Source: an uncultured archaeon (GTDB taxonomy: Archaea; Altiarchaeota; Altiarchaeia; IMC4; SCGC-AAA252-I15). Taken from it: 35,083 bases of DNA. Shown piece by piece: positions 1 to 34,144 of the stretch (its first letter is position 1; every line of letters begins with the position of its first letter). The stretch lies in contig CAZPLO010000007.1 in the NCBI GenBank assembly GCA_964587725.1, positions 1 through 35,083 on the forward strand, given 5' to 3'. Below the pieces are notes generated by a model. The model made no database searches and was not told the origin of the DNA. It saw only the letters and a program-made list of their open reading frames with translations. A program made the translations under genes and the position numbers.

Positions 1-3000
1 CCCGCCGGAGCCGGAAAACACCACCTCAGTATTCTGCTGCTCGGCATAATATTGCTTTCAGCAACAGCACACATCCCCGGCGAGGGGTCCGCTCAAGGAG
101 GCACCGAAAAAGCAGGGGACGCAGTCCAAAACACGGTGACCATGAACATCAGGGAGTTCAAGGGAACCTTCCTGCCGCTGCTGTTCGGACGGTCGGCCGC
201 ACTGCCCTTCAGCAACGTATCCTTCGACAACGTGTACAACGCAAACCACCCCCTGGTACAGAGGATGGGGAGGATCATACTGGAGCTCCTGATACCCATA
301 TACATGATACTCATACTGCTCACGGGGATGTATTACATCTGGGGTGCGATGTCCCCCAGAACCAGGTCGCATGCGAAGACCATGCTGCAGAAACTTGTGA
401 TGGGCATGGTAGCCTGCAGTATCGCCTTTCCCCTGTTCAACATGGCCTTCGACCTCAACAACTTCATAGTCGCGTCCATACTGTCCGTTGAAACCTCGTC
501 CGGAAGCAGGGTGGTTCCGACATGGTGGGGGCCGGTAACCGGCTTCTACAGCGCAGCGCCCGGTCTGGCCGTGGCAGGGGGGATCATAGCGTTGATAGGC
601 GCACTGACGTTCGGGGTGGGGTGGATGTTCATAATAGGGCTGGTGTGCATGCTGATAGCGTTAATGTTCATGCCCTACCTGATTCTCTCCTTCAGGAACG
701 TGCTGCTCCTGGTTTTGGCCATCTTCTTCCCCATGACCATATTCTTCATGTCCTTCGACTTCCTGAAGGGGCTGGGGTACAAGCTGTTCAAGACCACCAT
801 GACCTGGATTTTCATCCCCGTCCCCATGGCCATATTCATACTGCTCTCCAACCTGCTGATAAGGTCCCTACTCTCGGTGTTGGGTCCGTCACCCTCCAAC
901 CTATTCGGCATAGCCGATTTCGTAGGCCTGTCCTTCGCGGCATTCGCCGCATGGGCTCTCGTCGGGATGGCGCCTATGATGATGACCAGCTTGATGAGGA
1001 TAGCGGGCGGCGCATTCATCTACGTCGGACAGGCCGGCGGCAGCACAAAATTGAGTTTCATGGGATTCGTCATGCAGGGGTACAGTGCGGGTGCGCTTAC
1101 CCAGGCGGCGTTCCAGTCCCAGCGGATGCAGTCCCGCGGAATCAGCCAGCGCGAGACCGCGGAAAAATACGACAGCCACATAGGCGCCATGGGCAGCGGA
1201 GCGCCCACCGCAGTCGACGCCGCCCAACCTCCTCCCCCGTACGCCGAGCAGAAGGCCATCAAGGGACGGGACGTGTTCGGTTTGGGTACGCTGTTCGGCG
1301 CCGAAAAAGACAGTACTGGGATGCCCCGCGCCAGCATGGGCACCGCGCCGGAGGCGAACTACGTGAGCGGGGTAGAATATGCCAGAAGCCGGGCGGCGGA
1401 GGCGGCCGCCAAGGGAGACAAGAGGGATGCCCGCAGGTGGCGGAGAGTGGCCAGGGCCCAGAGGATGAAGGTGGCGGCGGCTCCAGCTGGCAAGTTCCTG
1501 CGGAACATGATGAGGCAGACCATAGGGAAAACCGCTGTTGGGAAGGCGCTGATACAGGCTTCATGGAATATGACAGGGTATTGGGAGAAGGACTCGAAGA
1601 CGGGGAAGAGGGTTTTCAACTACGGATGGATGAGCTACGGAGGCATGTCCCGGGGCGCCAAGAAGGCGGCGGCCGGCTCATACGAAGGGTTTAACGATGG
1701 GGGGGTGAAAGGGAAGGGCACCCCCCCTGCCGTGAAGGCGGCCATCACCGCCGCAGGCATAGCCCTCCCCGCAGCCATCCTCGCAGCCCCTATCATAGGA
1801 GGTGCTGGGTTGGGGCTGAGTCTCATAGGCGGAGCCGCACTGGCAACCGGGATAGGAACACACATAGCAGGAGGGATGGGGGGGAAAGCCAAGGAGCGAA
1901 TGGACAAAGGGGAAAGCCAGGGGTTGGATGAAACAGACTCGTATGTGAGGGGGAAGTACCAGGATAAGACGGCGGCCGACAACGCAACCCGGAAAACCAT
2001 GGTAGATTCCATGGGCCGCGGGAAAAAGAACGAGGAAATAGGGAGGGCGTTGGACGACTTCAGAAAAGCCAAGACCGACAGCAACATAGGATACTTGAAC
2101 TCCCACCTAGACGACCTCCCAGACGAGAAGAGACTAATCCACGACAGGACCAGGGCCGAGATGGGCAAGAAATACGACGCGGAAAACGGGGAAGGCGCCT
2201 GGGCTGAACTTGGGGAAAGCGAACAGGATAAGTGGATGAATGGGAGAAGCGAGGAATACAATAGAGAATTCAACCAGCAGCTCAGTAGACGCGCTGGAGA
2301 ACTTGACGTAGCCGACCCGAATGATTTCATGGGCGCTTACCTGGACCAGCGACCCGATGAACGGGAGGTCTTTGATGAGAGGGTTAGTGAGGGGATGGGC
2401 AAGAAATACGACGCGGAAAACGGGGAAGGCGCCTGGGCTGAACTAGATGGGAGTCAGCAGACTGAGTGGATGACGGGGCATGCAGACTACCAAGATGAAG
2501 TGAAAAAACAGGCTGGAAAACGGGTTGGGGAGCTGGAGAACGGAGAGTTCGCAGTGAATGACAAGTGGGCTCGGCGGGAGAGGGAGGCTGGGAGACGGGC
2601 TGAACTGGCGGACCACATGACCTCCGGCCTCAGCAAAAAACAGATGGACGAGCTGGTGGGCGGAAAGAGGAAAGAATTATTGGACGGTGAAGCGAGGGGG
2701 ATGGCGTTCAGGGATAATAAGGTTTGGAGCCAGCTGGGGGAACGCGAGCAGGAGACATACAGGAGGGAAGCCATTGGGGCGCGAGCGCGGAAGCTGGCTT
2801 CTGCGGAAGGCAAGGACTTTAACCGGTTAGGGGCCGATGAGAGAATAGGCTACATGGACAGGGCGAAAGCCGACGTCAACCGCGCCGCGGAAGCGCAGGC
2901 GAAAAGACACCTGTATGAGACGGGTAGGGATAACGCGTGGGATGCAGTGGACCAGGACAAGAGGTCAAAGTACGCCGACATGGTGTGGGACGGACTGTCC

Positions 3001-3303
3001 GACCGCCAGAGGAAAACATACATGGAGACCGCGAGAGACCGGCTTGGGGCGAGTGACAACAGAGTGGTTGAATACGAAGCCAAGGCGGAGGCCGCCAAAG
3101 ACTCCGCGCTGCTGCAGCGGGAATACGTATGGGACAAGGAGTCGATGAGGGGGGGGAAGAAGGCTTCATCGAAGGCATCCGGTGAGAAAGACCACCGGGA
3201 ACTGGACATGGCCCGGCTGGAGGACGCGAAAAACACAGCATACCGGAGCCATGACATGTGGGAGGACGACATGTGGAAAGAAGGTGAAGACGGTGTGGAT
3301 TGA
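1..3303 (+). CDS. Giant polytopic membrane protein, VirB6/TrbL/CedA-like N-terminal core plus repeat-rich charged helical tail (5'-partial)
   Basis: The frame is open from base 1 (PAGAGKHHLSILLLGIILLSATAH, signal-peptide-like), so the true start lies upstream of the window. There are about 7-8 hydrophobic segments in the first ~330 aa, including G-x-Y-Y..SPRTRSHAK..L..LVMG and R...L.VLAIFFPMTIFF..F..LKGLG motifs, a Gly/Ala hydrophobic hairpin at ~1740-1880, and a long acidic/basic tail. The family assignment is inferred from topology and motifs. Confidence 0.6.
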   Translation, partial: PAGAGKHHLSILLLGIILLSATAHIPGEGSAQGGTEKAGDAVQNTVTMNIREFKGTFLPLLFGRSAALPFSNVSFDNVYNANHPLVQRMGRIILELLIPIYMILILLTGMYYIWGAMSPRTRSHAKTMLQKLVMGMVACSIAFPLFNMAFDLNNFIVASILSVETSSGSRVVPTWWGPVTGFYSAAPGLAVAGGIIALIGALTFGVGWMFIIGLVCMLIALMFMPYLILSFRNVLLLVLAIFFPMTIFFMSFDFLKGLGYKLFKTTMTWIFIPVPMAIFILLSNLLIRSLLSVLGPSPSNLFGIADFVGLSFAAFAAWALVGMAPMMMTSLMRIAGGAFIYVGQAGGSTKLSFMGFVMQGYSAGALTQAAFQSQRMQSRGISQRETAEKYDSHIGAMGSGAPTAVDAAQPPPPYAEQKAIKGRDVFGLGTLFGAEKDSTGMPRASMGTAPEANYVSGVEYARSRAAEAAAKGDKRDARRWRRVARAQRMKVAAAPAGKFLRNMMRQTIGKTAVGKALIQASWNMTGYWEKDSKTGKRVFNYGWMSYGGMSRGAKKAAAGSYEGFNDGGVKGKGTPPAVKAAITAAGIALPAAILAAPIIGGAGLGLSLIGGAALATGIGTHIAGGMGGKAKERMDKGESQGLDETDSYVRGKYQDKTAADNATRKTMVDSMGRGKKNEEIGRALDDFRKAKTDSNIGYLNSHLDDLPDEKRLIHDRTRAEMGKKYDAENGEGAWAELGESEQDKWMNGRSEEYNREFNQQLSRRAGELDVADPNDFMGAYLDQRPDEREVFDERVSEGMGKKYDAENGEGAWAELDGSQQTEWMTGHADYQDEVKKQAGKRVGELENGEFAVNDKWARREREAGRRAELADHMTSGLSKKQMDELVGGKRKELLDGEARGMAFRDNKVWSQLGEREQETYRREAIGARARKLASAEGKDFNRLGADERIGYMDRAKADVNRAAEAQAKRHLYETGRDNAWDAVDQDKRSKYADMVWDGLSDRQRKTYMETARDRLGASDNRVVEYEAKAEAAKDSALLQREYVWDKESMRGGKKASSKASGEKDHRELDMARLEDAKNTAYRSHDMWEDDMWKEGEDGVD
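2160..2444 (+). repeat. Intragenic direct repeat: identical 51-bp copies (2160-2210 and 2394-2444) inside a diverged 78-aa tandem duplication
   Basis: gatgggcaagaaatacgacgcggaaaacggggaaggcgcctgggctgaact occurs twice, 234 bp apart, encoding MGKKYDAENGEGAWAEL. Confidence 0.95.
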
Positions 3304-3328
3304 GAATACAGACGGCGGAGGGGGGAGG

Positions 3329-6300
3329 TTGGTTGACCGTCGGAATCTAACGTTGGCTGCATCAGCCCTGCTGATTCTTCTGGTGGCGGCACCGTACGCG
3401 AACGCCGACGCCAGTTCATGGATTATGAAGATGCTGTTATCCCCCACCTACGCCCTCGTGGAGTATATTGCAGCCAAGATAGCGGAGGGCGCCAGCAACA
3501 TGCTGGTGGTCATGGCGGCGTTCATCCAGATAAACCCGTGCGTTTACTCGACCGGAACGTCCTGCCCAGACTACCAGATGGTGACCCCCAAGGGTTCTGT
3601 GACGTGGTCGATGCCGTTGGACCCGGGGATCAGGGACATAAACGTGACCCTCATGCAGATGCTTCAGCTGTGGTATATCTTCGCCATAGTGGTGGTGGGT
3701 GCCTATCTTATCTTCATGGCCGGCTCCCCCCACGGACGGTCCAACGCCAAAGACGCCTTCATCCGACTCATAATAGGCATGATCCTGGTATCCCAGTCCC
3801 CCGTCATATTCCAGTTCATGATAGACCTGGTGAAGTTCCTCACCGAAAGCCTGATGGGCGAAGTCGGGGGCGGGAAGGACATGTCCGCGTTCTTCAAAAG
3901 CACCAAGTTCCTGTGCAGCAACATGTGCCTCCTCCTCACGGCGGTGTCGGCAACATTCATCGCGGCAATCAGATATTTCATGGTCTACGCCATGGCGTCC
4001 CTGTTCCCTTTAACGCTGTTCCTCTACTTCACCGACATACCCAACCCGTTCTTCTCCACCAGAGGCCTTGGGACCAGGCTGCTGCGGTTCACCATACTAC
4101 TGTTCATCGTTCAGCTGCTTCAGGTAGTGTTCATTGCGGTGGCGTTCGCCCTCACTCAGACGTCCGGAGGGGGTTTCGTGGCCAACATCCTCGACATGCT
4201 GCTGATTATAGGCGCCTACTTCGGCGTATTGTACACGCCCATGATAGGGTTGAAGCTTATGGCGTGGGTTGGTGCGGTGCTGCACCTTTATTCGACTAGA
4301 GGACAGGGAGACTTCACCCGCTTCATCGCCACGTGGATGAGGACAGGCAGAATATCCAATGCCCTTGTGACCGCCAGCGGCCAGTACATGATAGGCCACA
4401 ACATGGGAGACCACGCCGGGGGGGAATCATCCGGTCCCAGTTCACCGTTCAGATACGGCGTCGCAGACGGGTTCGGGAAAGCATTCAGCGCACCCGGCGT
4501 GTCACCGTATCTGAGCCGGAGGGGATACTCCGCCCCCAGAGGCCTGGGGTCTGCCAGGGCCATGGGCGCGTTGGGCGTCGCAGGAACCGGCAGAAGCATG
4601 TACACGCCATCCGTATTCTCCAGGGCCCCTGGAGGGCAGGGGAGAGGCGCCCACCCCGTAAAGCACAGGGGAGTGGGATCCGGCACAGCAGAGGCGGTCT
4701 CACATTCAACATCTCATACGGAGATGGACATTAGAGGCGGTGGCACACTAGTTGATATGACAGACGGAGGGCTTCAGACTGCCACAACATTCACGGACAA
4801 GGGTAGGGTTGTGAGACAGGAGTTCGAGCCTGGGGGTACCTCAACCCGTGACCGGCGGAGGAGTAAGCAGGGTGGAGGCAACGTCCGCAGGCGAGAGATG
4901 GTGGGGGCCAGGTTGGACAGGAGGCGGGGCGCCGCAGTGGGACAGCATATGGCCGCGAAAGGAGTCGCACCGCCTGCCGCGGGGGAGGCGCCTGCCGCTC
5001 CGGCAGCCCCCGCCGGCGGAGGAGGGGGGAGCAGGATGCCCGCAGGAGGCACCGGCGGGCCAAGCGGAGCCGCCGGACCCGGTAGCGCTACCCCAGGTAC
5101 TCCGGGCGGAACAGCGGCGGTCGTTGCAACCGCCGCAGCAGCCGGAGGACGGGCAATGTCGGCGGAGGAGCGAGCCGAGGACAGGAAAACCCAGCGCGAC
5201 ATAATGAATGCGTGGAGGGACTGGGATAAACTCGGTGAAGAGGAGCGGCGGAAGACGGAAGATGCTACCAGAGAGTGGGTTAAAAAATACTATGCCAGGA
5301 TGCGCGGCGGCAAACCCGAAGACCATGGCAGAGCGGCGGACCGGAGTGTGAAAAACTTAAGGGACTTCCACACACTCAAGGCGAAGGCCGCGGGAGACCC
5401 CGGCGACTACGCGGCCGGGCAGGCCGTGGAGATGGACAGGCGCCTGGACGACATGGCGGGCAGGGGCGAAGATGAACGAGGACACCTTGAAGGTCCGCTG
5501 GCCGCGAAGACTAACATCCTCGGCCTCGCAGACAAACACGACGGCAACATGACGGAGATGTTCAAACGGGAGGACCCCAACAGCATATTAGCCAAGGCGG
5601 CGGCGGCCGACCCGGAATACACAACAACAGACCAGCAGATACGGGAGAAGGTGTCGGCCAGGATGCCAGCGCCCGACGCCGGAATCGAGAGGCCGCTTAC
5701 CCGGCCGACTGTGGATGAGATAATGGACGAGGCCCTGGCGGAGGATGTCGTGCGCAGCGCCAGAATAAACGGCGATGAGATACACGGTATGAAGCTGACA
5801 AACGAGATGCTGCTGGAGCACGGGATGCAACCCAGGTACAGGATAGACCTGGGCGAGGAGAGGGTGTGGTTGTCTTCGGAGGCATTCGTCGTACACAACG
5901 AAAGGAGGGCTGTGATAGCGTACGTGGAGAGGGGGGGTGAAACATTTGTCAGGACATATTACAGGAGCAACTCACAGGATGTGTGGAGGTACCTGCCGGA
6001 GTACCGTCTAGAAGAAGGTGAGATTAAATGGTACAGTAAGGCCTTCAGTGAAGACTCCATAACACTGCCCATCAGCATACAGAAGGCACTGGCCAAAATC
6101 CCCACAGACGAAGCGTCGGTCAGGAGATTCGACGACCCCCGGATGCGCGATGTTTTCTTTGCCGGAACCGCGAAGAAGCTTACGGGAGACAGGCAGCCTG
6201 GTTTCACGCTGACTGAGATTAATCAGAGGCCGGATAAACTGGAGGGCAGCTTCTATGGAAAAGTCAGCCCGGAAAACATCGTGTTCAGCAACCCAGACGA

Positions 6301-7498
6301 CAGACCAGACTTCAACGCAGGCCTGGTGGACGGGTGGGTTCAGAGGGACTCCCCCATCTACGGGGAGACGAATGTTGAAGTCTTCCAGTCCAAAAACGGC
6401 AGATACGCTTACATGATGTGCAGCGACGGCGAAGGGCGGGCATGGGTCGGCGGAGTGGAGGATTTGACGAGCCCCATAACATCCACGGGACTTAGGAAAA
6501 ACTGGATATACGGGGGCAACTTAAACACGCCGGTATTCGAGTACGATACACAGGACGGAGGATACGGCGGAGAACGGCATCCCGTCTACCATGGATATAA
6601 GGACATGATGGAGGGATACCACAGTAAAGTAGGAGTCATAAGGGACTACCTGACATACAAGGCAGTCGGCAGGGTCGCGGAGCCGCAGGCACCATCGTCG
6701 CCCGCAACAATTGAAGGGTTGAGGCAGGCAACGACAAGCCGGGAGTTCGTAGAGCTGACCCACACGCTAAAGGGACAACACGCAACAATCACTGGGAGGG
6801 AGGACGAGGGTCTGGAAATCCTGGGAGGCACTGTAGACGGATACAACAGGCGTGCGTTAACAGTGAAGAACCGCTCCGGAGAGTCAACGCAGATAACCCT
6901 GAACGAGGTCACCGGCATACAGGAGCCAAATGCTGCAGCACCAGCTGTGGCGAAATTGGAGGAAACTCTGAGGAGGGGGAGGATGTCTGAGGAGGCGATA
7001 GAACGCGTCCACGAAGTAGTAGAAACCGAGGAGGAAGCTGGTGAGGTGACGCGGCTGGTGCGGAACGCCAAGGAGAAGGGCGTGTCTACGGAGACGATAA
7101 GCGAGGTGTTGAGACAGTCAACCAGTTACGCGATGATAAGGAAAGGCCTCGAAGAGGACGTATTTGAGAAGGATTATGCGGTTGCTGAAGAAGAATACGG
7201 TGTTGCGCCGACGGAAGCCACGGTGAAATCAGAGCCCCCGGATGCTGGTGAAAGGCCCTCCGAACCAAGGAAAACAGGGGGAAAACCACCTGCCACAGAG
7301 GTCAAAGAGAAGACGCCAGGAGACGCCGAGCCCCCGGAACAGCCGAAGCCCGACGGCCAAGACCTGAAGGCGATGGCGAGGATTCGGGCAGAGTACATGC
7401 GGGAGAAGGAACGGAGGGAGAAAGAACAAGGGGAAAAGGAGAAAGCCCAGGAACAAAAGAAGAAAAAAGAGGATGAGGATGAAGGGGGGGAAGACTGA
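3329..7498 (+). CDS. Second giant VirB6/TrbL/CedA-like membrane protein with multi-domain C-terminal tail
   Basis: Probable TTG start at 3329 after GGAGGGGGGAGG; signal peptide MVDRRNLTLAASALLILLVAAPYANA. The TM core aligns with the upstream gene (GAYLIFMAGSPHGRSNAKDAFIRLIIGM; RYFMVYAMASLFPLTLFLYF...RGLGTRLL). It is followed by a G/A/P linker, a globular domain at ~5700-6665 and a charged C-terminus. Confidence 0.6.
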   Translation: MVDRRNLTLAASALLILLVAAPYANADASSWIMKMLLSPTYALVEYIAAKIAEGASNMLVVMAAFIQINPCVYSTGTSCPDYQMVTPKGSVTWSMPLDPGIRDINVTLMQMLQLWYIFAIVVVGAYLIFMAGSPHGRSNAKDAFIRLIIGMILVSQSPVIFQFMIDLVKFLTESLMGEVGGGKDMSAFFKSTKFLCSNMCLLLTAVSATFIAAIRYFMVYAMASLFPLTLFLYFTDIPNPFFSTRGLGTRLLRFTILLFIVQLLQVVFIAVAFALTQTSGGGFVANILDMLLIIGAYFGVLYTPMIGLKLMAWVGAVLHLYSTRGQGDFTRFIATWMRTGRISNALVTASGQYMIGHNMGDHAGGESSGPSSPFRYGVADGFGKAFSAPGVSPYLSRRGYSAPRGLGSARAMGALGVAGTGRSMYTPSVFSRAPGGQGRGAHPVKHRGVGSGTAEAVSHSTSHTEMDIRGGGTLVDMTDGGLQTATTFTDKGRVVRQEFEPGGTSTRDRRRSKQGGGNVRRREMVGARLDRRRGAAVGQHMAAKGVAPPAAGEAPAAPAAPAGGGGGSRMPAGGTGGPSGAAGPGSATPGTPGGTAAVVATAAAAGGRAMSAEERAEDRKTQRDIMNAWRDWDKLGEEERRKTEDATREWVKKYYARMRGGKPEDHGRAADRSVKNLRDFHTLKAKAAGDPGDYAAGQAVEMDRRLDDMAGRGEDERGHLEGPLAAKTNILGLADKHDGNMTEMFKREDPNSILAKAAAADPEYTTTDQQIREKVSARMPAPDAGIERPLTRPTVDEIMDEALAEDVVRSARINGDEIHGMKLTNEMLLEHGMQPRYRIDLGEERVWLSSEAFVVHNERRAVIAYVERGGETFVRTYYRSNSQDVWRYLPEYRLEEGEIKWYSKAFSEDSITLPISIQKALAKIPTDEASVRRFDDPRMRDVFFAGTAKKLTGDRQPGFTLTEINQRPDKLEGSFYGKVSPENIVFSNPDDRPDFNAGLVDGWVQRDSPIYGETNVEVFQSKNGRYAYMMCSDGEGRAWVGGVEDLTSPITSTGLRKNWIYGGNLNTPVFEYDTQDGGYGGERHPVYHGYKDMMEGYHSKVGVIRDYLTYKAVGRVAEPQAPSSPATIEGLRQATTSREFVELTHTLKGQHATITGREDEGLEILGGTVDGYNRRALTVKNRSGESTQITLNEVTGIQEPNAAAPAVAKLEETLRRGRMSEEAIERVHEVVETEEEAGEVTRLVRNAKEKGVSTETISEVLRQSTSYAMIRKGLEEDVFEKDYAVAEEEYGVAPTEATVKSEPPDAGERPSEPRKTGGKPPATEVKEKTPGDAEPPEQPKPDGQDLKAMARIRAEYMREKERREKEQGEKEKAQEQKKKKEDEDEGGED

Positions 7499-9004
7499 TC
7501 AGGTGACTTCCCCTAGTATGACTCCGCCGACGCTCAGCGGCTGCGTGTCTGCGGCGACCTGTATGGCGTAGTCGAGTTTACTTTCGCTGTTTGAATATAT
7601 GGTGAAGAGTTTACCGCCTTTCTCCACCCGGTCGCCGAGTGTGGCGTGCAAGTATATTCCTGCGCCGCGGTCTTTGGGTGCGCCGGCGGCCCGCGCCACC
7701 TTAGCAACTAATTTGTTGTCTATGAAACGGACTTTCCCGGTGATTTCGGATGTGACTTCAAATGATTTGTCGCCGACTGGGACGTCCTCCGGCCTGACCT
7801 TCGGGTTGCCGCCCTGGGCTTCGATGATTTCGCGCATCTTCTCCAGCGCCTTACCAGAGTTCAGCAGTTGTTCGGCGTATGTTCTGCCGCCGCCGGGCTT
7901 GACCTTACCCGACAACTCCAGCAAAACAGAGCAGAGGTCCAGGCTCTTGTTAACCAAATCCGTCGGTCCCTTCCCCTCCAACGCCATCATGCAGTCCCGG
8001 GCCTCCAATGCGGGGCCGATGCCGTTTCCTATCGGGCTGCTGCCGTCGGTGACCACGCATTTGGTCTTAATCTCCAGACGCTTCCCCAACTTGATGAACT
8101 TGCGGGCTAACTCGTTGGCGCGCTCCATGTCGTCGAGTTTCGCGCCCCTCCCCACCGGTATGTCGATGACCAGGTAGTCTGAGCCCACGCTCTTCTTCTT
8201 CGCCATCACGCTCGCCAGCACCTGACCCTCAGGGTCGATTGAAAGCGGGTATTCGACGCGTATTATCTTGTCGTCTGCGGGGGCAAGGTTGACGGAGCCG
8301 CCCCAGACTATGCACCCGCCTATGCTGTTGACTATGTTCTGCAGCTCCTCGATGCTGAACTCCACGCCCGCCAAACACTCCATCGTGTCGGCGGTGCCCG
8401 CCGGCGAGGTTATGGCGCGGGAGCTGGTCTTAGGCATAGTCAACCCCGCAGCCGCTATTATCGGCACCATCACCATGGTGGTGCGGTTGCCTGCGACGCC
8501 GCCGATGCAGTGTTTGTCCACCACCTCGTCGCCGAAGTCGATTTGGTCGCCTGTTTCAACCATCGCCTGCGTCAACGCCACCGTCTCGTCCATGTCGTAG
8601 CCGTTTATGTAGGCGGAGACCATCAACGCAGTCAACTCGATGTCGGACAGGTTGTTGTCGACTATGTCCTGGACGATGGAGGTTATTTCGTGGCCGTGGA
8701 GGTGCTGGCCGTGCATCTTCTTCTTGATGAACTCGATGCTTTTGGGGCTGGAGGCGGCGCTTATGTCCACGATGTCGCCGGAATTCAAATCCAGCATCTC
8801 CTTAACCTCCTCGAAGATGCCTATCTCCCCCTCCGGCACCAGGGTGGTGGTTGCGTCGATTATGGCTGAAACCGCGCACTTGCTTTCATTGCATATCTTG
8901 ATTCTGTCGCCTATGTGGACGCCCAAGTCCTTCATGTCCTCTTCGTTGAGGACCACTATGGGTTTGCCGGTCTCGATCTCGTACAAATCGACTTTAACTT
9001 TCAT
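7499..9004 (-). CDS. deoA: AMP phosphorylase (archaeal thymidine phosphorylase family)
   Basis: 501 aa with the extra N-terminal domain, DKHCIGGVAGNRTT, PKTSSRAITSPAGTADTME, NLAPADDKIIRVEYPLSIDP, GIGPALEARD. Confidence 0.95.
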   Translation of the reverse strand: MKVKVDLYEIETGKPIVVLNEEDMKDLGVHIGDRIKICNESKCAVSAIIDATTTLVPEGEIGIFEEVKEMLDLNSGDIVDISAASSPKSIEFIKKKMHGQHLHGHEITSIVQDIVDNNLSDIELTALMVSAYINGYDMDETVALTQAMVETGDQIDFGDEVVDKHCIGGVAGNRTTMVMVPIIAAAGLTMPKTSSRAITSPAGTADTMECLAGVEFSIEELQNIVNSIGGCIVWGGSVNLAPADDKIIRVEYPLSIDPEGQVLASVMAKKKSVGSDYLVIDIPVGRGAKLDDMERANELARKFIKLGKRLEIKTKCVVTDGSSPIGNGIGPALEARDCMMALEGKGPTDLVNKSLDLCSVLLELSGKVKPGGGRTYAEQLLNSGKALEKMREIIEAQGGNPKVRPEDVPVGDKSFEVTSEITGKVRFIDNKLVAKVARAAGAPKDRGAGIYLHATLGDRVEKGGKLFTIYSNSESKLDYAIQVAADTQPLSVGGVILGEVT

Positions 9005-9040: not shown

Positions 9041-10042
9041 TCAGCCTTCCCGGAGCTCCCGGTACCTGAGCTCCAAGCCACGGTCGGATACTATGCGGTC
9101 TAGGACGCCGCCGACGCTCACCCGCCTGGTAAGGTGGTCGGCCATCCGCACCGGATACAGCTGCGGGTGGATGAGTTCAAATTCACTCAACCAAGCGCCC
9201 GCAATGCAGTCAATGTCTTTCTCCCATCCGCCGCCGGTGAACTCCCACCGGACCGTGAGAGGCATGCTAATGCCTGACGGGTTGGAAGGCAGCTTCTTCG
9301 AAGGCAGCTTCACATAGCAGATGCTTATGTTGTCGCGGACGTCCGACACGTACTCGCCCGGCTTCAACGCTATGTCGAACAGCAACATGTTGGTGAAGTT
9401 GTATCCCAGGTCGCGTGAGAGGTCGGTGGCGTGGCTGTCCTCCACCAACCCCACCGCCTTGCCCGTGTCGAGGACTCTGTTGAACGCGGACGACGCGTCG
9501 GCGTGTTCGGCGTAGGAGCCTTTCTTGTTGCCGAGGTTCTGGAGGTTGGTGTACAGGCTGCCGTCAACCAGCAGGTAGTCTGGTTCCACGCCGTCGGCTG
9601 CGAGCTCCCCGTACGCCTTCATAAGGGAGTCGAACTCGAACGCTACGCGCATGGAATTGCGTCTGCTGTCCAAGTCGCTGTATGGGATGAAGCGGCCGAC
9701 GTCCATGTATGTCGAGTAGAGGAGGTCAGTGTAGGGTAGGGTTCCGCGGCCGGCGAGGGGGTCTACGTGGTCGCCTCCGTCGTATCGCGCATATACGGCG
9801 GCCGCATGGACAGCCCACAACGCATGATACCTCAGCTCCCGCGAGGCCACGGAGCAGTCCACCGTTAGATAGGTTGACTCCCGGGCGGACGGGTTTATGG
9901 AACCGAATTTGAAGCCTGACGAGGTGAGTTTGTCGCGGAGCCCCTGGGGGTCGATTTTCTCCCGCTCCTCCAGGTTAAGGGACTGTATCCTGGACTGCAG
10001 AAGGTTATAGTCCGCCTTGAAGTCTGGGTCCAGGGGCCGCAT
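9041..10042 (-). CDS. NurA-family (RNase H-fold) nuclease, divergent
   Basis: Motifs in NurA order: YLTVDCS, LLVDGSLY, VGLVEDS and C-terminal YPVRMADH. Start placed at ATG 10042, just after the upstream stop codon. Confidence 0.75.
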   Translation of the reverse strand: MRPLDPDFKADYNLLQSRIQSLNLEEREKIDPQGLRDKLTSSGFKFGSINPSARESTYLTVDCSVASRELRYHALWAVHAAAVYARYDGGDHVDPLAGRGTLPYTDLLYSTYMDVGRFIPYSDLDSRRNSMRVAFEFDSLMKAYGELAADGVEPDYLLVDGSLYTNLQNLGNKKGSYAEHADASSAFNRVLDTGKAVGLVEDSHATDLSRDLGYNFTNMLLFDIALKPGEYVSDVRDNISICYVKLPSKKLPSNPSGISMPLTVRWEFTGGGWEKDIDCIAGAWLSEFELIHPQLYPVRMADHLTRRVSVGGVLDRIVSDRGLELRYRELREG

Positions 10043-10043
10043 G

Positions 10044-10973
10044 TTAGGGTGTGAACTCCCGCAGCTCCCTTCCAAGGAGATGGTACTGCTGACCCGTTAT
10101 CGCGGAGGGATCGACTGCGACGACAAGCCTCGAACGGTTCTGGACGACGACGTCGTCGAGTCCCTGTATCATCTTCAATACGTCGCCGAAGCTGTTGTGG
10201 AGGATGAGGTACTCTATGCCCTGCAGCAGGACGACGGTGTCGTCGCCCTTCCAAACGAAATCCTTTATCATGTGGCTGAGTTCCGTCAAATCCGACGGGT
10301 GAACGCGGTCCTCGTAGTCCTTCTCCTGGGTAAGCCACACCATCGGCGTCTTCACCAGCCCGTACTGTTTCCGAAGCTTCTCCGGGTACGTTCTGGTGGC
10401 CGCGAAACCCATTACGCCGTGGGTCACCAGGTCTGAGAACAAATCCAGGGAAGACAGCTCCCGGCGGTCGCTGTGCAGGTAGTATTCGCGCACGTCCCCG
10501 CCCGGCGGACCCTCCTTCACCAGGTAGCTGCAGCCGGGTTCGAGACTGTATTTCGCCTCGGAGGCACTGTGGTTTTCCGTCACCAGCACCACCGGCTTGA
10601 ACTGGAACTTCACGTCTCCCCGGGACTTCATTGAATTGTATAGAAGGTAGGCGCCGATGGTCATGGAAATCGCCATCACCGTCCTGCTGAAGGTGGTCAC
10701 AAAACCCAGGGTGCTGACGTCGACGGTGAACACGCGGCTGGCGCCCAACGTGACTCTGCCGTTGCTCGCCACCAGCAGCATCGTCGACAGATTCAGCAGC
10801 AGCACCATCAGCACCGACGCGAAAATCCACAGCCAGCCCTCATCATGCCTGCCGGAGATGGAAATCCTCTTGAACAGCTTCACCCAATAGATTACCGCCG
10901 CCAGGGACACGACTATGGTTGCTATGTTAAGCTGGAACTCCAGCCCGCCCAAACTCATTAAAGCAGCCTCCAT
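10044..10973 (-). CDS. Membrane-anchored DUF835 domain protein
   Basis: 3 N-terminal TM helices. The C-terminal G-x-SYLVKE...TRTYPEKLR...VWLT...VHPSDL...VVLLQGIEYLILHNSF..VLK pattern is typical of DUF835. Confidence 0.85.
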   Translation of the reverse strand: MEAALMSLGGLEFQLNIATIVVSLAAVIYWVKLFKRISISGRHDEGWLWIFASVLMVLLLNLSTMLLVASNGRVTLGASRVFTVDVSTLGFVTTFSRTVMAISMTIGAYLLYNSMKSRGDVKFQFKPVVLVTENHSASEAKYSLEPGCSYLVKEGPPGGDVREYYLHSDRRELSSLDLFSDLVTHGVMGFAATRTYPEKLRKQYGLVKTPMVWLTQEKDYEDRVHPSDLTELSHMIKDFVWKGDDTVVLLQGIEYLILHNSFGDVLKMIQGLDDVVVQNRSRLVVAVDPSAITGQQYHLLGRELREFTP

Positions 10974-29512: not shown

Positions 29513-29767
29513 ATGACCGGAGAACACGAGGGAAGGAAGAACCTTACGGACGAGACATTGGATTTGGAGCGGGGCAGACAGAGCCTCATAGAGGAACTGG
29601 AAGCCATAAACTGGTACCAAGAAAGGGTTGAGGTCTGCAAGGACCCTGAATTGAAGAGGATACTGGAGCACAACCGCGACGAAGAGAAGGAACATGCGGC
29701 GATGCTGATAGAGTGGCTTCGCAGCAGGGACGAGACGCAGGACAGGATGTTCGAGGAGCACGACTGA
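29513..29767 (+). CDS. Encapsulated-ferritin-like (EncFtn/Flp) half-ferritin
   Basis: SLIEELEAINWYQERV...ILEHNRDEEKEHAAMLIEWLR. Confidence 0.88.
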   Translation: MTGEHEGRKNLTDETLDLERGRQSLIEELEAINWYQERVEVCKDPELKRILEHNRDEEKEHAAMLIEWLRSRDETQDRMFEEHD

Positions 29768-29769
29768 AG

Positions 29770-30219
29770 ATGAGAGTTGCGGTGGCGACGAACAAGGGAG
29801 GGCTCGGAGACAGTGTGTCGCCGGTGTTCGGCAGGTGCCCCACCTACACGGTCGTCGAGGCAGATGATGCTGTGAAGGGCGCTGATACCGTCGGCAACCC
29901 GGGGCATACTGCGGCCGGCGGCGCGGGCATACAGGCGGCGCAGTATGTCACGGAACTGGGCGTGAATGCGGCGTTGGCGGGGAACTTCGGACCGAACGCC
30001 GCCGCAGTGCTCGAGCGCAGCGGGGTTGAAATGGTCCGGGCAGAAGGCAACGTTAAAGACGCCGTGGAAGCCTACTTGCGCGGGGAACTGAAGCCCCTGG
30101 AGGAGCCAAACGTGAGAGGCCATTTCGGCATGGGCCGCGGAGGAAGGGGCGGCGGAGGCCGCGGAGGAAGGGGCGGCGGAGGCCGCGGAAGAGGCGGCGG
30201 CAGAGGGGGACGGTTGTAG
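29770..30219 (+). CDS. NifB/NifX-family dinitrogenase FeMo-cofactor-binding domain protein with RGG tail
   Basis: MRVAVAT...VSPVFGRCP...GGAGIQAAQ...GNFGPNA; HFGMGRGGRGGGG tail. Confidence 0.9.
   Translation: MRVAVATNKGGLGDSVSPVFGRCPTYTVVEADDAVKGADTVGNPGHTAAGGAGIQAAQYVTELGVNAALAGNFGPNAAAVLERSGVEMVRAEGNVKDAVEAYLRGELKPLEEPNVRGHFGMGRGGRGGGGRGGRGGGGRGRGGGRGGRL
30133..30189 (+). repeat. 24-bp tandem repeat (2.4 copies) encoding GRGGRGGG
   Basis: ggccgcggaggaaggggcggcgga x2 followed by ggccgcgga. Confidence 0.9.
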
Positions 30220-30220
30220 A

Positions 30221-30559
30221 ATGGATGACATGAACGACATATTAAAGGAAGTGGAGGGGTCGCTGAAGCAGTTGGGCAAGGAGTATCCGGAGCAGATGAA
30301 TGCGTTCGCCAGCTTCATGCACTCCGCCGAAAAGGAGGGTGTTTTGCCGCATAAGACGAAGGAGCTGATAAGCATCGCGCTGTCGGTTGCGACGCAGTGC
30401 AAGTGGTGCGTAGCATACCATGTGAAGCATGCGCTGGAGGCCGGAGCAACAGAGGACGAGATTATGGAAACCTGCTTTGTGGCGGCGTTGATGGGCGGTG
30501 GTCCGTCGCTGATGTACACGCAACTGGTGGTGAAGGCCTTGGAGGACTTCAGAGAATGA
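30221..30559 (+). CDS. Carboxymuconolactone decarboxylase / AhpD-like protein
   Basis: GVLPHKTKELISIALSVATQCKWCVAYHVKHALEAGAT.DEI.E...A..MGGGP. Confidence 0.92.
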   Translation: MDDMNDILKEVEGSLKQLGKEYPEQMNAFASFMHSAEKEGVLPHKTKELISIALSVATQCKWCVAYHVKHALEAGATEDEIMETCFVAALMGGGPSLMYTQLVVKALEDFRE

Positions 30560-30951
30560 GGGTTGCTGTGCCCACGCAGGGAGGAGGGGGCCTGGAAGAC
30601 ACAGTGGGGGAGCACTTCGGCCGCACACCCACTTACACCCTCGTGGACCCTGATTCGATGGAGGCTGAGGTGATAGAGAACATCAGCCACCACATGGGCG
30701 GAGCAGGTTATCCGCCGGAGCTGCTGGAGAAACACGGCGTCAACGTGCTGCTGTGCAGGGGCCTGGGCAGGCGGGCGATTCAGATGTTCAGCGAGAAAGG
30801 CATAGGCGTCTACTGCGAAGCCTCCGGAACCGTGGAGGACGCGCTCCGGCAGTGGAGGAACAACGAGCTCGTGAAGGCCACGGAAGACACCGCCTGCAGC
30901 CGGCACGAGTTCCGCGGCAGAGACCATGGGACTGAGAAGTGCGGGCATTGA
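30556..30951 (+). CDS. Second NifB/NifX-family protein
   Basis: MRVAVPT...VGEHFGRTP.Y...HHMGG...LLCRGLGRRA...GTVEDAL; C-terminal Cys/His tail. Confidence 0.9.
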   Translation: MRVAVPTQGGGGLEDTVGEHFGRTPTYTLVDPDSMEAEVIENISHHMGGAGYPPELLEKHGVNVLLCRGLGRRAIQMFSEKGIGVYCEASGTVEDALRQWRNNELVKATEDTACSRHEFRGRDHGTEKCGH

Positions 30952-30970
30952 ATTTTTCACTGTCACGGTA

Positions 30971-31585
30971 ATGGCTCATACTGAAGCTGGAGACTACAGA
31001 GGCTACTATGACACGCCTTTGGGGAGGCGTGTGCTGAAGGCGGAGGCAGACTACATTAGGCCCTGGCTTCGGGACTGCGACATGGTACTGGACGTGGGCT
31101 GCGGTCCGGGGGCGTTCGAGGAGGAGCTGGCAGACCTCAACATAGTGGGTGTGGACGTTGAAGTGGGCATGGTTAAGGCTGCGGGTGAGACGGGGATGTT
31201 CACGGCGGCTGACGCGAAGAACCTGCCGTTCCGCGACGCATGCTTCGATGGAGTGTTTTCGGTTTCCACCATGGCTTTCACAGACGACTACCGGGCGGCC
31301 GCAGAGGAAATCGACAGGGTGCTTTCTCCCGGCGGGCGGACGGTGTTCCTGCTCTGCAACACCAACTCAGAATATTTCAGGAAGAAGCTGCACGGGGGAG
31401 GCTACACCACAAAACACATAAGACACGTGGACGTCAGACCCATAGCGGATTTTCTGCGTGAGAGATTCGACCTGCAGGGACAGTATCTGTTGGGCATCGA
31501 AGGGGACAACGTGTTCAAGACGTCTGACCCTGAGCGGGCGTGCATGTACGCTTTGAGGGGTTACTCCAGGGGGGAGGGGGGATGA
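30971..31585 (+). CDS. Class I SAM-dependent methyltransferase
   Basis: VLDVGCGPG, GVD, ADAKNLPFRDACFD, RVLSPGG. Confidence 0.9.
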   Translation: MAHTEAGDYRGYYDTPLGRRVLKAEADYIRPWLRDCDMVLDVGCGPGAFEEELADLNIVGVDVEVGMVKAAGETGMFTAADAKNLPFRDACFDGVFSVSTMAFTDDYRAAAEEIDRVLSPGGRTVFLLCNTNSEYFRKKLHGGGYTTKHIRHVDVRPIADFLRERFDLQGQYLLGIEGDNVFKTSDPERACMYALRGYSRGEGG

Positions 31586-32424
31586 GAGTCAACCTGGACT
31601 GCATACCCTGCCTCATGAGGCAGGCCTTGGAGGCGGCTCGGATGTCGTCCGACGACCCCGGCGTCCACGAGCGGGTTTTGAGGGCGGTGGCGGAGTTGAT
31701 GCACGAGACACCATACCGGAGGACGCCGCCTGAGATGGCGCATGAGATACACGCGCTGGTTCGGGAGATTTCAGGCAACCCGGACCCGTACCTGAAGCTC
31801 AAGGAGAGGGACAACCGTCTGGCCATGGAGATGTACGGTTGGATGAAGGACACCGTCGCCGACTCCGACGACCCCCTGCACACCGCGTTGAAGCTGGCGG
31901 TCGCAGGCAACATAATAGACTACGGCGTCGGCGGAGTGTTCGATTTGGAGGGGACGGTGGAGGACGTGTTGGCCAGGGACTTTGCGGTGGACCGGTGCGC
32001 GGCCTTCGCCCGCGACCTGGAGTCCGCCGAAAACATGCTGTATCTCGCGGACAACGCGGGCGAGATTGTGTTCGACCGGGTGCTGATTGAGGAGTTGGAC
32101 GGCGCCGACGTGACAGTGGTGGTCAAGGGCGGGCCCATACTCAACGACGCCACCGAAGACGATTTGAAGGCTGCGGGGATACGCGGAGTAACGGTGGACT
32201 ACATGGGCAACGGCAGCCCCGGGTCGGGGCCGGACAGGAACGACCCCGGGTTCATAGAGAAGCTGAAGGCCGCTGACCTGGTGTTGAGCAAGGGCCAGGG
32301 CAACTACGAGGCGTTGAACGGAGAGGGATACATTTACTTTCTGCTGATGGCCAAGTGCGGGCTGGTGGCCCGCGACCTAAGCGTGTCGAAGGGGGACATA
32401 GTGTTCTGCGGGGGTGCGCGGTGA
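31582..32424 (+). CDS. DUF89 / ARMT1-like damage-control metal-dependent phosphatase
   Basis: DCIPC, DPY..K..N, AGNIIDYG, YLADNAGEIVFD, PILNDAT, SKGQGNYE. Confidence 0.92.
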   Translation: MRVNLDCIPCLMRQALEAARMSSDDPGVHERVLRAVAELMHETPYRRTPPEMAHEIHALVREISGNPDPYLKLKERDNRLAMEMYGWMKDTVADSDDPLHTALKLAVAGNIIDYGVGGVFDLEGTVEDVLARDFAVDRCAAFARDLESAENMLYLADNAGEIVFDRVLIEELDGADVTVVVKGGPILNDATEDDLKAAGIRGVTVDYMGNGSPGSGPDRNDPGFIEKLKAADLVLSKGQGNYEALNGEGYIYFLLMAKCGLVARDLSVSKGDIVFCGGAR

Positions 32425-33329
32425 AGCACGTGTTCGGTCCGGTGCCGTCCAGGCGCCTGGGCAGCTCCCTGGGGGTGGATTTGGTGCCGCATAAAGTGTG
32501 CTCGTTCGACTGCATCTACTGCCAGCTAGGGGGTACCACGGATAAGACGCTGGAGAGGAGACACTACGCGCCGGTCGAAGACATCGTGGGGGAGGTGGGG
32601 GATTTCCTGGACCGCGGCGGCTGCGACTACGTGACCATGTCGGGTTCGGGGGAGCCGACGCTCAACGCCGACATGGGAGCAGTCATAGACGGGGTGAAGT
32701 CGCTGACGGACACGCCGGTGGCGGTCCTGACCAACTCGTCCCTCATAAACGATTCCGGTGTGAGGGCGGAGCTGGCCGCCGCGGACGTTGTGGTCCCGTC
32801 CTTGGACGCGGCCACACAGGAGGTGTTCGAACGGGTGAACCGGCCCGTGGATGGCCTGCTGGTGGAGGACATAATAGACGGGCTCGCGTCATTCAACGGC
32901 GCGGAGGTGTGGCTGGAGGTTATGCTGGTGGACGGAGTCAACGACACACCCGATGAACTGGAGGCCCTATCATCCGCAGTGGACGGGATAGAACCAGATA
33001 AGGTGCAGTTGAACACGGTTGTGAGACCGCCGGCGGAAGATTATGCGGGGGCGATTAGGAGGGACAGGATGGACGAAATCGCGGGTTTCCTCGGGGCGGA
33101 GGTGGTGGCTGACTTCAGCCGCGCCGCAGCGGAGTCCTACAGCGGCGACGTGGAGGAGGGGATACTCGAACTCCTTATGAGGCGGCCTTGCACTGTGGAT
33201 GACCTGTCTTCCGCGCTCGGCGTGCACGAGAACGAGATACTGAAGTACGTGGGCGAGCTCCGGGACGACGGCAGGGCTGTTGAGGAACGTCGGGGTGGAA
33301 GAAGATACTTCAAGGGTGTTGTGGAATGA
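32421..33329 (+). CDS. Radical SAM protein with C-terminal HTH-like extension
   Basis: FGPVPSRRLGSSLGVDL..K.CSFDCIYCQLG, SGSGEPTL, LTNSSL, SLDA; GTG start overlapping the upstream stop. Confidence 0.92.
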   Translation: MKHVFGPVPSRRLGSSLGVDLVPHKVCSFDCIYCQLGGTTDKTLERRHYAPVEDIVGEVGDFLDRGGCDYVTMSGSGEPTLNADMGAVIDGVKSLTDTPVAVLTNSSLINDSGVRAELAAADVVVPSLDAATQEVFERVNRPVDGLLVEDIIDGLASFNGAEVWLEVMLVDGVNDTPDELEALSSAVDGIEPDKVQLNTVVRPPAEDYAGAIRRDRMDEIAGFLGAEVVADFSRAAAESYSGDVEEGILELLMRRPCTVDDLSSALGVHENEILKYVGELRDDGRAVEERRGGRRYFKGVVE

Positions 33330-34144
33330 TTCTGTCTGTTGCGAGCGGCAAGGGGGGGACGGGGAAGACCACGGTGGCGGTGAACATGGCGCTGTCCCTG
33401 GACGACGTGCAGCTGCTGGACTGCGACGTGGAGGAGCCGAACTGCCACGTCTTCCTCAACGCGGAGACATCCGAGGATGATGTGAAGGCCGTGATGCCCG
33501 TGGTCGACAGGAGTAAATGTGATTTCTGTGGCAGGTGCGCAGACTTCTGCAGATACAATGCGTTGGCGGTTGCCGGCGAGAACGTGATGGTGTTCAAGGA
33601 ACTCTGCCACGGATGCGGAGGCTGCGTGCTGGCGTGCCCCCGGGACGCGATAAGCGAGGGTGAGAGGGCGGTCGGCGTGGTCCGGTGCGGGAAGGCGGAC
33701 GGCATGGACTTCGCCTACGGGCTGTTGAACGTGGGAGAGGCCATAGCAACTTCCGTCATCCACGCAGTGAAAAACAAGGCGGGGGAAGGCGACGTCATAG
33801 TGGATGCGCCGCCCGGTACTTCGTGCGCTGCCGTGGCTGCGGTGGAGGGCTCCGACTACTGCGTTTTGGTTGCGGAGCCGACGCCGTTCGGGTTGAACGA
33901 CCTCGAACTGGCTGCGGAGATGCTGGATTCAATGAAGATACCGTATGGGGTGGTGGTCAACAAAGACAGGACCGGATACGACGGCGTAGACCGCTTCTGC
34001 GGAGAGAAACACATTCCCGTACTGATGAGGATACCCGACGACCGGCGGATAGCCGAACTGTACAGCGACGGCATACCGTTTGTGGGGGAGATGCGGGAGT
34101 ACCGGGAAAAATTCGGGAAACTGTTCCAGGAGGTTAAGAAGTGA
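33326..34144 (+). CDS. MinD-superfamily P-loop ATPase with inserted 2x[4Fe-4S] ferredoxin domain
   Basis: ASGKGGTGKTT, DCDVEEPN, CDFCGRCADFC, CHGCGGCVLACP, DAPPGTSC, EPTPFGLNDL. Confidence 0.93.
   Translation: MILSVASGKGGTGKTTVAVNMALSLDDVQLLDCDVEEPNCHVFLNAETSEDDVKAVMPVVDRSKCDFCGRCADFCRYNALAVAGENVMVFKELCHGCGGCVLACPRDAISEGERAVGVVRCGKADGMDFAYGLLNVGEAIATSVIHAVKNKAGEGDVIVDAPPGTSCAAVAAVEGSDYCVLVAEPTPFGLNDLELAAEMLDSMKIPYGVVVNKDRTGYDGVDRFCGEKHIPVLMRIPDDRRIAELYSDGIPFVGEMREYREKFGKLFQEVKK

Follow-up and report, generated by a model that had tools for sequence, protein, structure and literature searches.

The first 7498 positions of the DNA described here raise a question: what are two adjacent giant membrane proteins, alike near their N-termini and unrelated in the long tails that follow, doing in the chromosome of an uncultured archaeon? 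The stretch analysed (the window) constitutes the first 35,083 bases of contig C7 (CAZPLO010000007.1) of an altiarchaeal genome of 1.56 Mb, which is assembled in 48 contigs and is 92% complete. According to the list of open reading frames (ORFs), positions 1-7498 are filled by two co-oriented ORFs, called gene 1 and gene 2, or P1 and P2 by their position in the pair. Their closest named relatives are proteins from Candidatus Altiarchaeota/Altiarchaeales metagenome-assembled genomes. We consider it likely that the two are ancient, tandem, extended VirB6/TrbL-like membrane proteins with cytoplasmic adaptor tails, and that they belong to a minimal, chromosomal, archaeal apparatus resembling a type IV secretion system (T4SS) with extended VirB6 paralogs. 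What the data show is how the core is related and folded, which genes the genome contains, that the locus is syntenic, that the two genes are orthologous by position and that their tails are hypervariable.

In a Kyte-Doolittle scan each protein begins with a hydrophobic segment, and a series of hydrophobic helices comes after it. BLASTP gives a single significant alignment between them (21% identity over 212 amino acids (aa), E 3e-14), which joins residues 84-289 of gene 1 to residues 148-327 of the gene 2 ORF and includes both core stretches quoted in a preliminary description of this DNA. No BLASTP alignment between the tails is better than E 0.5. A core profile built from 4 sequences finds 1014 cluster representatives at E≤1e-3, 146 of them at E≤1e-30, among 1.84 billion proteins. 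In the best 150 of those matches the core is always near the N-terminus, and the total length of the protein varies from 270 to 2584 aa. The similarity of these core sequences is far beyond chance.

Pfam models catch this family of 1014 cluster representatives only marginally. The T4SS_pilin model scores 23.7 bits on the gene 2 protein and 29.9 bits in a six-frame search, its cut-off being 26.6; apart from this sub-threshold match neither protein singly reaches a Pfam family. A paralog on contig C28 matches T4SS_pilin with 27.1 bits and, further along, TrbL with 20.1-22.1 bits (E 5.8e-4), below the TrbL cut-off of 25.9. Among 63 short relatives, 5 match TrbL with E≤1e-3, two of these reaching or exceeding the cut-off, and 9 match T4SS_pilin. 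Furthermore, a 30-sequence family profile run against 5.8 billion sequences finds TrbL-domain proteins of ~950 aa at E 6e-8 to 2e-6, and hhalign aligns this profile to one such protein with a probability of 93.8% (E 1.8e-7) over 252 columns overlapping the TrbL region. Sequence homology of the core to TrbL/VirB6 (PF04610) holds at the level of the family only.

The fold of the core points in the same direction. The AlphaFold2 (AF2) model of gene 2 residues 1-384 has a pLDDT of 80.3 and a pTM of 0.71. Compared with 48,161 solved chains, it reaches Z≥8 for two only, Legionella DotA (9ngy; Z 9.3, 219 residues aligned) and R388 TrwI/VirB6 (7o3v_F; Z 8.6, rmsd 5.1, 210 of 261 residues aligned); in helical models a Z below ~13 can come from the arrangement of the helices alone, so that values of 8.6-9.3 are not decisive by themselves. 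No transporter ranks near these two. The hairpin of gene 2 (residues 93-167) resembles conjugative pilins, including Aeropyrum CedA1 (8dfu), with Z 6.4-6.7. The N-terminus of CedA is described as homologous to the CedA1 pilin, and that of VirB6 likewise to VirB2 (Beltran et al., PMC9905601). Because CedA and VirB6 N-termini resemble pilins in this way, a pilin-like hairpin in the core fits a VirB6-class protein. As modelled, the core has a VirB6-like fold.

The orientation of the core in the membrane was predicted from the distribution of charge. Averaged over 30 family members, loop 1 has 3.1 Lys and Arg residues, loop 3 has 1.5 and the segment after the fifth transmembrane (TM) helix has 2.1, and the N-terminal region and loops 2 and 4 are acidic. 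The basic loop 1 is the invariant SP..GR..AK turn. This pattern predicts five TM helices with the N-terminus out and the C-terminus in, the same topology as in the model of Agrobacterium VirB6, which has its N-terminus outside, about five TM helices and a cytoplasmic C-terminus (as cited in PMC7648143). The tails, at least that of gene 2, are thereby predicted to be cytoplasmic. For gene 2 the prediction draws on the charge pattern, on the relatives of its tail domain, which have no hydrophobic segments, and on a J domain in the tail of an ortholog. J domains work with cytosolic Hsp70, and DnaJ and TPR domains are typically cytoplasmic.

Other parts of a T4SS-like apparatus are encoded elsewhere in the genome. 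On contig C41 a protein truncated by the contig end (its last 200 aa remain), a PrgI-like protein, a VirB4-like ATPase and two small pilins are all encoded in the same direction. The PrgI-like protein is possibly a fusion of VirB3 with a TrsD-like piece, such as is known from the pGO1-type gene set. The pilin family PF18895 is over its cut-off at 15 places, 2 of them inside giant proteins and 13 in small VirB2-like pilin genes (nine in tandem on C3, two on C41 and one each on C14 and C34). Five ORFs of the genome bear the core; one of them follows the pilin gene on C34 and runs off the contig. The T4SS locus of G001, a same-genus genome with longer contigs, consists of a pilin gene, a giant core protein (1665 aa), a 155-aa protein, a mid-sized core protein (682 aa), a 398-aa protein, a PrgI-like protein, VirB4, two pilin genes and a SepRS-like gene. 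Because this gene order joins C34 and C41, the two contigs are taken as parts of one T4SS locus, in which two VirB6-like paralogs stand directly upstream of VirB4. A VirB4 ortholog is found in 27 of 30 relatives with 64-86% identity, and in at least 15 of these 27 the contig with VirB4 also carries a core gene within ~16 kb of it, a lower bound counted from among the matches listed. For the coupling protein families PF02534, PF10412 and PF01580 the matches in this genome are Walker-A-sized and fall in ATPases of ~500 aa, none having the size of a type IV coupling protein (T4CP), and Relaxase PF03432, the only relaxase family searched, gave no match in it.

Several further features accompany these parts. 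The nine-pilin tandem array (C3:52,900-56,300, ORFs of ~110-135 aa) lies beside a gene for a 957-aa AglB/STT3 oligosaccharyltransferase, far from any VirB4. The C-terminal ~170 aa of the VirB4-like protein (residues ~584-756), which match no Pfam family, also occur free-standing in ORFs of 183-238 aa (G001:C4, G006:C85 and G011:C7; 38-43% identity); by eye, this extension may resemble a restriction-endonuclease-like motif. A second VirB4-like fragment at the start of contig C45 (C45:3-515, +) is 40% identical to residues 131-299 of the C41 protein and has an in-frame TAA, which makes it a pseudogene or else a leftover of assembly. Two genes lie directly upstream of the VirB6-like paralog on C28. 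One encodes a Cys-rich protein of more than 1181 aa without a Pfam family (C28:11,325-14,870, -), the G001 ortholog of which has 2241 aa and also matches C24; the other encodes a 181-aa protein with a signal peptide (C28:10,778-11,323, -). The matching locus of G001 contains aTrm56, a 1443-aa core protein and the 2241-aa Cys-rich protein. Finally, two to three paralogs of ~570-625 aa without a Pfam family stand beside the pilin gene of the T4SS locus both here (C34:3,926-9,383, +) and in G001 (L038:16,057-19,723). They are conserved in both genomes and may belong to the apparatus.

The core is spread over the whole order. At E≤1e-10 its profile matches 46 of the 48 other genomes of the order (20/20 in family f1 and 21/22 in family f5) and 0 of 12 genomes in two other families of the class. 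Counted at E≤1e-5, this genome and the 29 relatives that have a match (30 genomes) contain 1-17 core copies each. The copies of family f1 are mostly 600-900 or 1100-2400 aa long, and families f5 and f7 have tandem arrays of five or six copies of ~300-400 aa. Long frames (1000-2400 aa) have stayed open with few exceptions; 2 among the matches listed carry a stop.

The gene next to the pair in the window, an AMP phosphorylase gene, has an ortholog in 26 of 30 relatives. In nine of them (G001, G002, G004, G006, G007, G011, G012, G013 and G015) it is full-length, 61-79% identical and adjacent to a tandem core pair; in other f1 genomes it is located at the ends of short contigs, which are outside the adjacency count. 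The nine pairs and the pair described here (20 proteins, 190 pairwise comparisons) were compared all against all. The cores match in 169 of the 190 comparisons and the tails in 17, with a tail coverage of at least 50% in 2. For all 20 proteins the best core partner occupies the same position, P1 with P1 and P2 with P2, so that the duplication which gave rise to P1 and P2 is older than these genera. A mobile-element origin of the pair was considered and rejected, since the locus and both its flanks are syntenic across genera. On this evidence the pair is ancient and vertically inherited, and its tails are not old.

The upstream end of the locus falls on the contig end. In G001 the locus matching the window contains HAD, two DUF835 genes, NurA, AMP phosphorylase (79% identity) and giant core proteins of 1570 and 1450 aa, followed by orthologs of the last genes of contig C22, and from this synteny C22 should sit just upstream of the window. 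A 118-aa N-terminal fragment at the end of C22 shares 57% identity with gene 1. It contains the first 20 nucleotides (nt) of the window as an exact 20-mer; beyond these the sequences differ (74% over 216 nt). Either a third tandem copy or, at a branch point of the assembly, an allelic variant may account for the fragment. The stretch is present as contigs in four public sequencing runs of one study of a microbial mat metagenome, none of them RNA; one public contig extends 212 nt past the window start, and the contig-level data of the four runs did not separate a third copy from an allele. The preliminary description had regarded the pair as the end of an array. This is borne out in part: the nine relatives have exactly two such genes at the syntenic locus, and the fragment on C22 may be one more copy here.

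The tails of genes 1 and 2 are ~700-1000 aa in size. A module around residues 490-580 is the sole part of the gene 1 tail that is common to P1 orthologs. The last 460 aa of gene 1 were found in 0 of 30 relatives, as was the tail of gene 2, and none of 9 giant homologs compared with gene 2 aligns past residue 465. The gene 2 tail nevertheless contains a globular domain with 84 invariant columns in a five-sequence alignment, and because these columns extend over 350 aa that are common to four other proteins, the domain is under constraint. The four proteins lack the core and lack any hydrophobic segment, and the domain is present in none of 60 other genomes of the phylum. The AF2 model of the domain, calculated from the five sequences, is poor (pLDDT 51.8), and the ESM Atlas contained no usable match for either tail. 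Pfam scans detected no toxin, nuclease, adhesin or peptidase domain in the gene 1 or gene 2 tails. The repeats of gene 1 were also considered as HMG boxes, an identity that was rejected: HMG_box_2 matches 1 of 4 repeat segments only, at a chance level of E 0.23-0.29. When 19 orthologs and paralogs were scanned, DnaJ (45 bits), Metallophos (23.9 bits) or HHH_5 (27.1 bits) was detected in the tails of three, and 15 had no Pfam domain. TPR/SNAP repeats occur in 5 of the 63 short relatives. As for DNA import between cells, the sole hints come from helix-hairpin-helix domains, one in the tail of an ortholog and one in a short relative.

Two P1 tails from the same genus align over 1229 of 1271 residues at 26.7% identity, and their cores are 53% identical. 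The variability of the tails is best described as fast divergence and module exchange, both: divergence because the same-genus tails are still homologous at 26.7%, and exchange because the gene 2 domain recurs in core-less proteins. Within gene 1, positions 2181-2444 of the window contain two near-identical copies of a ~78-aa unit (GMGKKYDAENGEGAWAEL...). The contigs of all four public runs break at this repeat, leaving short pieces with raised depth, as expected of a collapsed internal repeat. Much of what the preliminary description had proposed is borne out by these results: two co-oriented neighbors with a common signal peptide and core and unrelated tails, a VirB6/TrbL-like character of the core, a VirB4-type ATPase, pilins and further paralogs elsewhere in the genome, and tails that are not kept among syntenic orthologs.

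From the above we infer a topology, a role in the channel and a function for the tails. After cleavage of the signal peptide, the core would insert with its N-terminus out, five TM helices and its C-terminus in. It would form or join a membrane channel or assembly platform, at which VirB4 would build VirB2-like pili and move substrate. Genes 1 and 2 and their paralogs would be alternative channel or platform subunits of an apparatus of the Ced/Ted or Patescibacteria kind. The tails of 700-1000 aa would lie in the cytoplasm and serve as paralog- and lineage-specific adaptors recruiting substrates or partners, in a genome where no coupling protein was found. Alternatively, the tails themselves might be released through the channel.

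A number of observations weigh against this reading. Pfam TrbL has no match at E≤1 to gene 1 or gene 2 singly, profile searches of PDB sequences with the core and other profiles returned nothing meaningful, and the Foldseek match of the core to TrwI (probability 0.96, TM 0.41-0.43) has a weak E of 0.28. Beyond the gene pair the 35-kb window contains housekeeping genes, and no VirB4, PrgI or small pilin gene is present in it or at the syntenic locus of G001. Because the pair is not beside VirB4, its tie to the T4SS apparatus rests on paralogy, and both apparatus and pair are known here from genes alone. A coupling protein or relaxase could be outside an assembly of this completeness and fragmentation. 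The topology is a charge-based prediction, the second hydrophobic segment of gene 1 (residues 576-616) could put its tail outside, and the C-termini of extended VirB6 proteins of Anaplasma are reported to be surface exposed (PMC7648143). Taken furthest, such doubts would make the core a member of an unrelated membrane family, a transporter or an envelope protein, with a generic helical-bundle likeness to VirB6 and pilins, and the pair would be unrelated to secretion. The missing TrbL and PDB matches, fold scores that are moderate for a helical protein and the distance of the pair from VirB4 would all agree with this. It is highly improbable, however, because independent sequence-profile links lead to TrbL-domain proteins, both top folds are T4SS channel subunits with no transporter close to them, and members of the family are encoded upstream of PrgI-like and VirB4 genes in no fewer than 15 genomes and immediately follow a pilin gene.

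If the core is VirB6-like, the tails could still act outside the cell. A constant VirB6-like module would then anchor or export interchangeable surface or delivered tails (adhesins, receptors or effectors), as in polymorphic toxins, F-plasmid TraG and the Rickettsiales proteins. Tails that are hypervariable at a conserved locus, different tail domains in different orthologs and the presence of the gene 2 domain in other architectures, outside the phylum genomes searched, are what such a system might display; the C-termini of Anaplasma VirB6-3 and VirB6-4 lie exposed at the surface and their release has been proposed (PMC7648143), and the variant N-terminus on C22, with its exact 20-mer of the window start, could mean allelic diversity in the population. 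We find this unlikely, because neither tail contains a toxin, adhesin or peptidase domain, and because no immunity-like small ORF lies 3' of either gene: 25 nt separate gene 1 from gene 2, which ends at 7498 and abuts the convergent housekeeping gene that occupies the minus strand from 7499. Furthermore, the positive-inside analysis places the C-terminus in the cytoplasm, the four proteins that contain a relative of the gene 2 tail domain lack hydrophobic segments, and the DnaJ domain of an ortholog tail suggests, from what is generally known of J domains, a cytoplasmic partner. The domains found in ortholog tails are not toxin modules either, and the analogy to polymorphic toxins or adhesins drawn in the preliminary description is not supported. 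A more specific possibility, which we think quite unlikely, is that the tails are cargo: the C-terminal region would be cleaved and passed via the VirB4-powered pilus channel into neighboring biofilm cells or episymbionts, and the up to 17 copies per genome would make up an archaeal arsenal of lineage-specific proteins delivered by contact, which arose independently of the extended VirB6 proteins of Rickettsiales but in parallel with them. It is also improbable that genuine VirB6-like cores carry tails without a specific role, that is, drifting and largely disordered spacers or scaffolds shaped by neutral low-complexity divergence and not by module exchange. Large parts of the tails are compositionally biased, charged or rich in Gly, Ala, Pro and Ser, the same-genus P1 tails have diverged much further than their cores, and most scanned orthologs and paralogs lack a Pfam domain, as drift would have it. 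Neutral drift would not, however, be expected to preserve the invariant columns of the 350-aa gene 2 domain, the open frames of 1000-2400 aa in almost all copies, the 90-aa P1-specific module in 5 genomes or the defined domains in some ortholog tails. The reading with cytoplasmic adaptor tails is therefore the one that we prefer. The features on which it draws are listed in the table.

Table. Features of the gene pair, its surroundings and the VirB4 locus (positions in the window unless a contig is named; res, residues)
Feature	Position	Strand	Evidence and remarks
Gene 1 (position P1), extended VirB6-like, 1100 aa seen	1..3303	+	ORF list, translation; family profile C7:16-1131, E 1.2e-83
Gene 1 core: signal-peptide-like res 7-27, pilin-like hairpin res ~84-150, further TM helices to res ~330	1..1050	+	Hydrophobicity, alignment to gene 2 and family
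P1-specific conserved module (gene 1 res ~490-580)	1468..1740	+	5 P1 ortholog genomes, 33-49% identity over 54-90 aa
Gene 1 second hydrophobic Gly/Ala-rich segment (res 576-616), possibly a membrane hairpin	1726..1848	+	Kyte-Doolittle scan
Gene 1 variable tail, highly charged; five W-x2-[LV]-x4-[KRQE]-x2-[YW] repeats at res 734, 812, 909, 980 and 996	1918..3300	+	Composition, motif scan
Spacer between genes 1 and 2, 25 nt, with Shine-Dalgarno-like GGAGGGGGGAGG ahead of TTG 3329	3304..3328	+	Read from the sequence
Gene 2 (position P2), extended VirB6-like, 1389 aa	3329..7498	+	Translation; family profile C7:3341-4429, E 1.0e-87
Gene 2 signal peptide (res 1-27) and VirB6-like core (res 28-360)	3329..4408	+	AF2 model, fold matches
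Pilin-like helical hairpin in gene 2 core with invariant SP..GR..AK loop	3623..3823	+	Pfam T4SS_pilin, pilin folds, invariant columns P134, R137, A140, K141
Gene 2 basic low-complexity Gly/Ala/Pro/Ser-rich linker (res ~400-640)	4526..5248	+	Composition per 100 aa
Gene 2 globular tail domain (res 797-1150), no assigned family	5717..6778	+	36-46% identity to four core-less proteins
Gene 2 C-terminal charged region, Lys/Glu/Asp-rich end	6779..7498	+	Translation, composition
AMP phosphorylase-like gene, convergent with gene 2	7499..9004	-	Pfam Glycos_trans_3N, Glycos_transf_3, PYNP_C
PrgI-like protein, 302 aa	C41:4839-5747	-	PrgI 33.8 bits; weak TraC_F_IV-like C-terminal part, E 0.013
VirB4-like ATPase, 756 aa	C41:2568-4838	-	P-loop_TraG 84.5 bits; PDB VirB4 4ag5 E 7.8e-36; TrwK E 3e-5

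Gene 1 is open at its 5' end because the window begins at the contig end. Only about four N-terminal codons appear to be missing, since residue 5 of the C22 paralog aligns to residue 1 of gene 1. Gene 2 most likely starts at the TTG directly 3' of GGAGGGGGGAGG, 25 nt past the gene 1 stop, and the two genes probably form one transcript. Past the AMP phosphorylase gene, positions 9041-10973 (-) encode a NurA-like protein and then a DUF835 protein with overlapping alternative frames, where the same-genus genome has two DUF835 copies. At the far end of the window, positions 29,700-35,010 (+) contain a co-oriented series of genes for two proteins with dinitrogenase FeMo-cofactor-binding domains, a CMD-family protein, a methyltransferase, an ARMT1-like phosphatase, a radical SAM protein and two MinD/ParA-like proteins with 4Fe-4S motifs.

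What is new here is a chromosomal, vertically inherited T4SS-like gene set that has been kept across a whole order of uncultured archaea, with a VirB6-like subunit multiplied to 1-17 copies per genome and tails of up to ~2000 aa. Extended VirB6 and many VirB2 paralogs are otherwise a hallmark of the obligate intracellular Rickettsiales, where they are linked to interaction with the host. If the system is active, it could mediate contact-dependent exchange of DNA or protein in Altiarchaeales communities, and the question of why VirB6 tails diversify would have a second, independent case to draw on. As far as the sources drawn on here extend, the T4SS relatives described in archaea comprise two DNA importers of Crenarchaeota, Ced and Ted, together with a few conjugative plasmids (PMC9905601, PMC12102498). 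A full-text search, with subscription-only papers outside its reach and its results judged by title and opening lines of the abstract, found no literature on such a system in Altiarchaeota, in keeping with the earlier statement that no characterized archaeal system of this sort was known.

Judged by analogy, the closest known parallel is the vir-homolog system of Rickettsiales, and among archaeal systems Ced and Ted come nearest in kind. The Anaplasma phagocytophilum T4SS is described as having four tandem extended VirB6 paralogs (VirB6-1 to -4) and 8-15 VirB2 copies, the latter comparable to the 13 small pilin genes found here. Both systems combine a TrbL/VirB6 core with long, hydrophilic, repeat-bearing extensions in tandem paralogs, and in both the T4SS genes are scattered on the chromosome (PMC7648143). 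The host here, however, is an archaeon and not an intracellular bacterium, and the tails have no detectable sequence relation. The parts seen here are VirB4, PrgI and pilins; no counterpart of VirB8-11 or VirD4 was seen, no search having been aimed at VirB8-11. Furthermore, the tails are predicted to be cytoplasmic here, whereas those of Anaplasma were found to be surface exposed by trypsin shaving (PMC7648143).

Ced and Ted, described in Sulfolobales and Thermoproteales, are likewise archaeal, chromosomal, domesticated minimal T4SSs that consist of a VirB6-like protein, a VirB2-like pilin and a VirB4-like ATPase, and they have no recognizable sequence similarity even to each other. The N-terminus of their VirB6-like protein resembles a pilin, just as T4SS_pilin matches lie inside the gene 2 and C28 cores (PMC9905601). 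Unlike in Ced and Ted, a PrgI-like gene is present here, and the likeness to CedA/TedA is one of architecture. We know of no long tail and no tandem giant paralogs described for CedA or TedA.

The chromosomal T4SS of Patescibacteria, a relative of the monoderm MPF-FATA class, resembles the present gene set in having VirB4, PrgI/VirB3, a TrsD-like piece, VirB6 and several PF18895/VirB2-like pilins. It is mostly without a relaxase, and a role other than conjugation has been proposed for it. It is bacterial, however, and a VirD4-like T4CP is common there, whereas none was found here; giant tails and an order-wide expansion of VirB6 are not mentioned for it in the parts of that report used here (PMC12102498).

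TraG of the F plasmid and SXT, as summarized in PMC7648143, has a VirB6-like N-terminal region and a large C-terminal domain, and functions in mating-pair stabilization and, together with TraS, in entry exclusion. As in the proteins described here, a VirB6-like membrane part is fused to a large hydrophilic domain, variation of which gives TraG its specificity (PMC7648143). TraG differs from the present pair in that its gene lies on a mobile element, which also encodes a full conjugation system; the pair has no evident exclusion partner, and in sequence the tails are unrelated. With polymorphic toxins and contact-dependent inhibition systems the proteins described here have variable tails in common, but no toxin domain was found in the tails of genes 1 and 2, and no immunity gene lies directly downstream of either.

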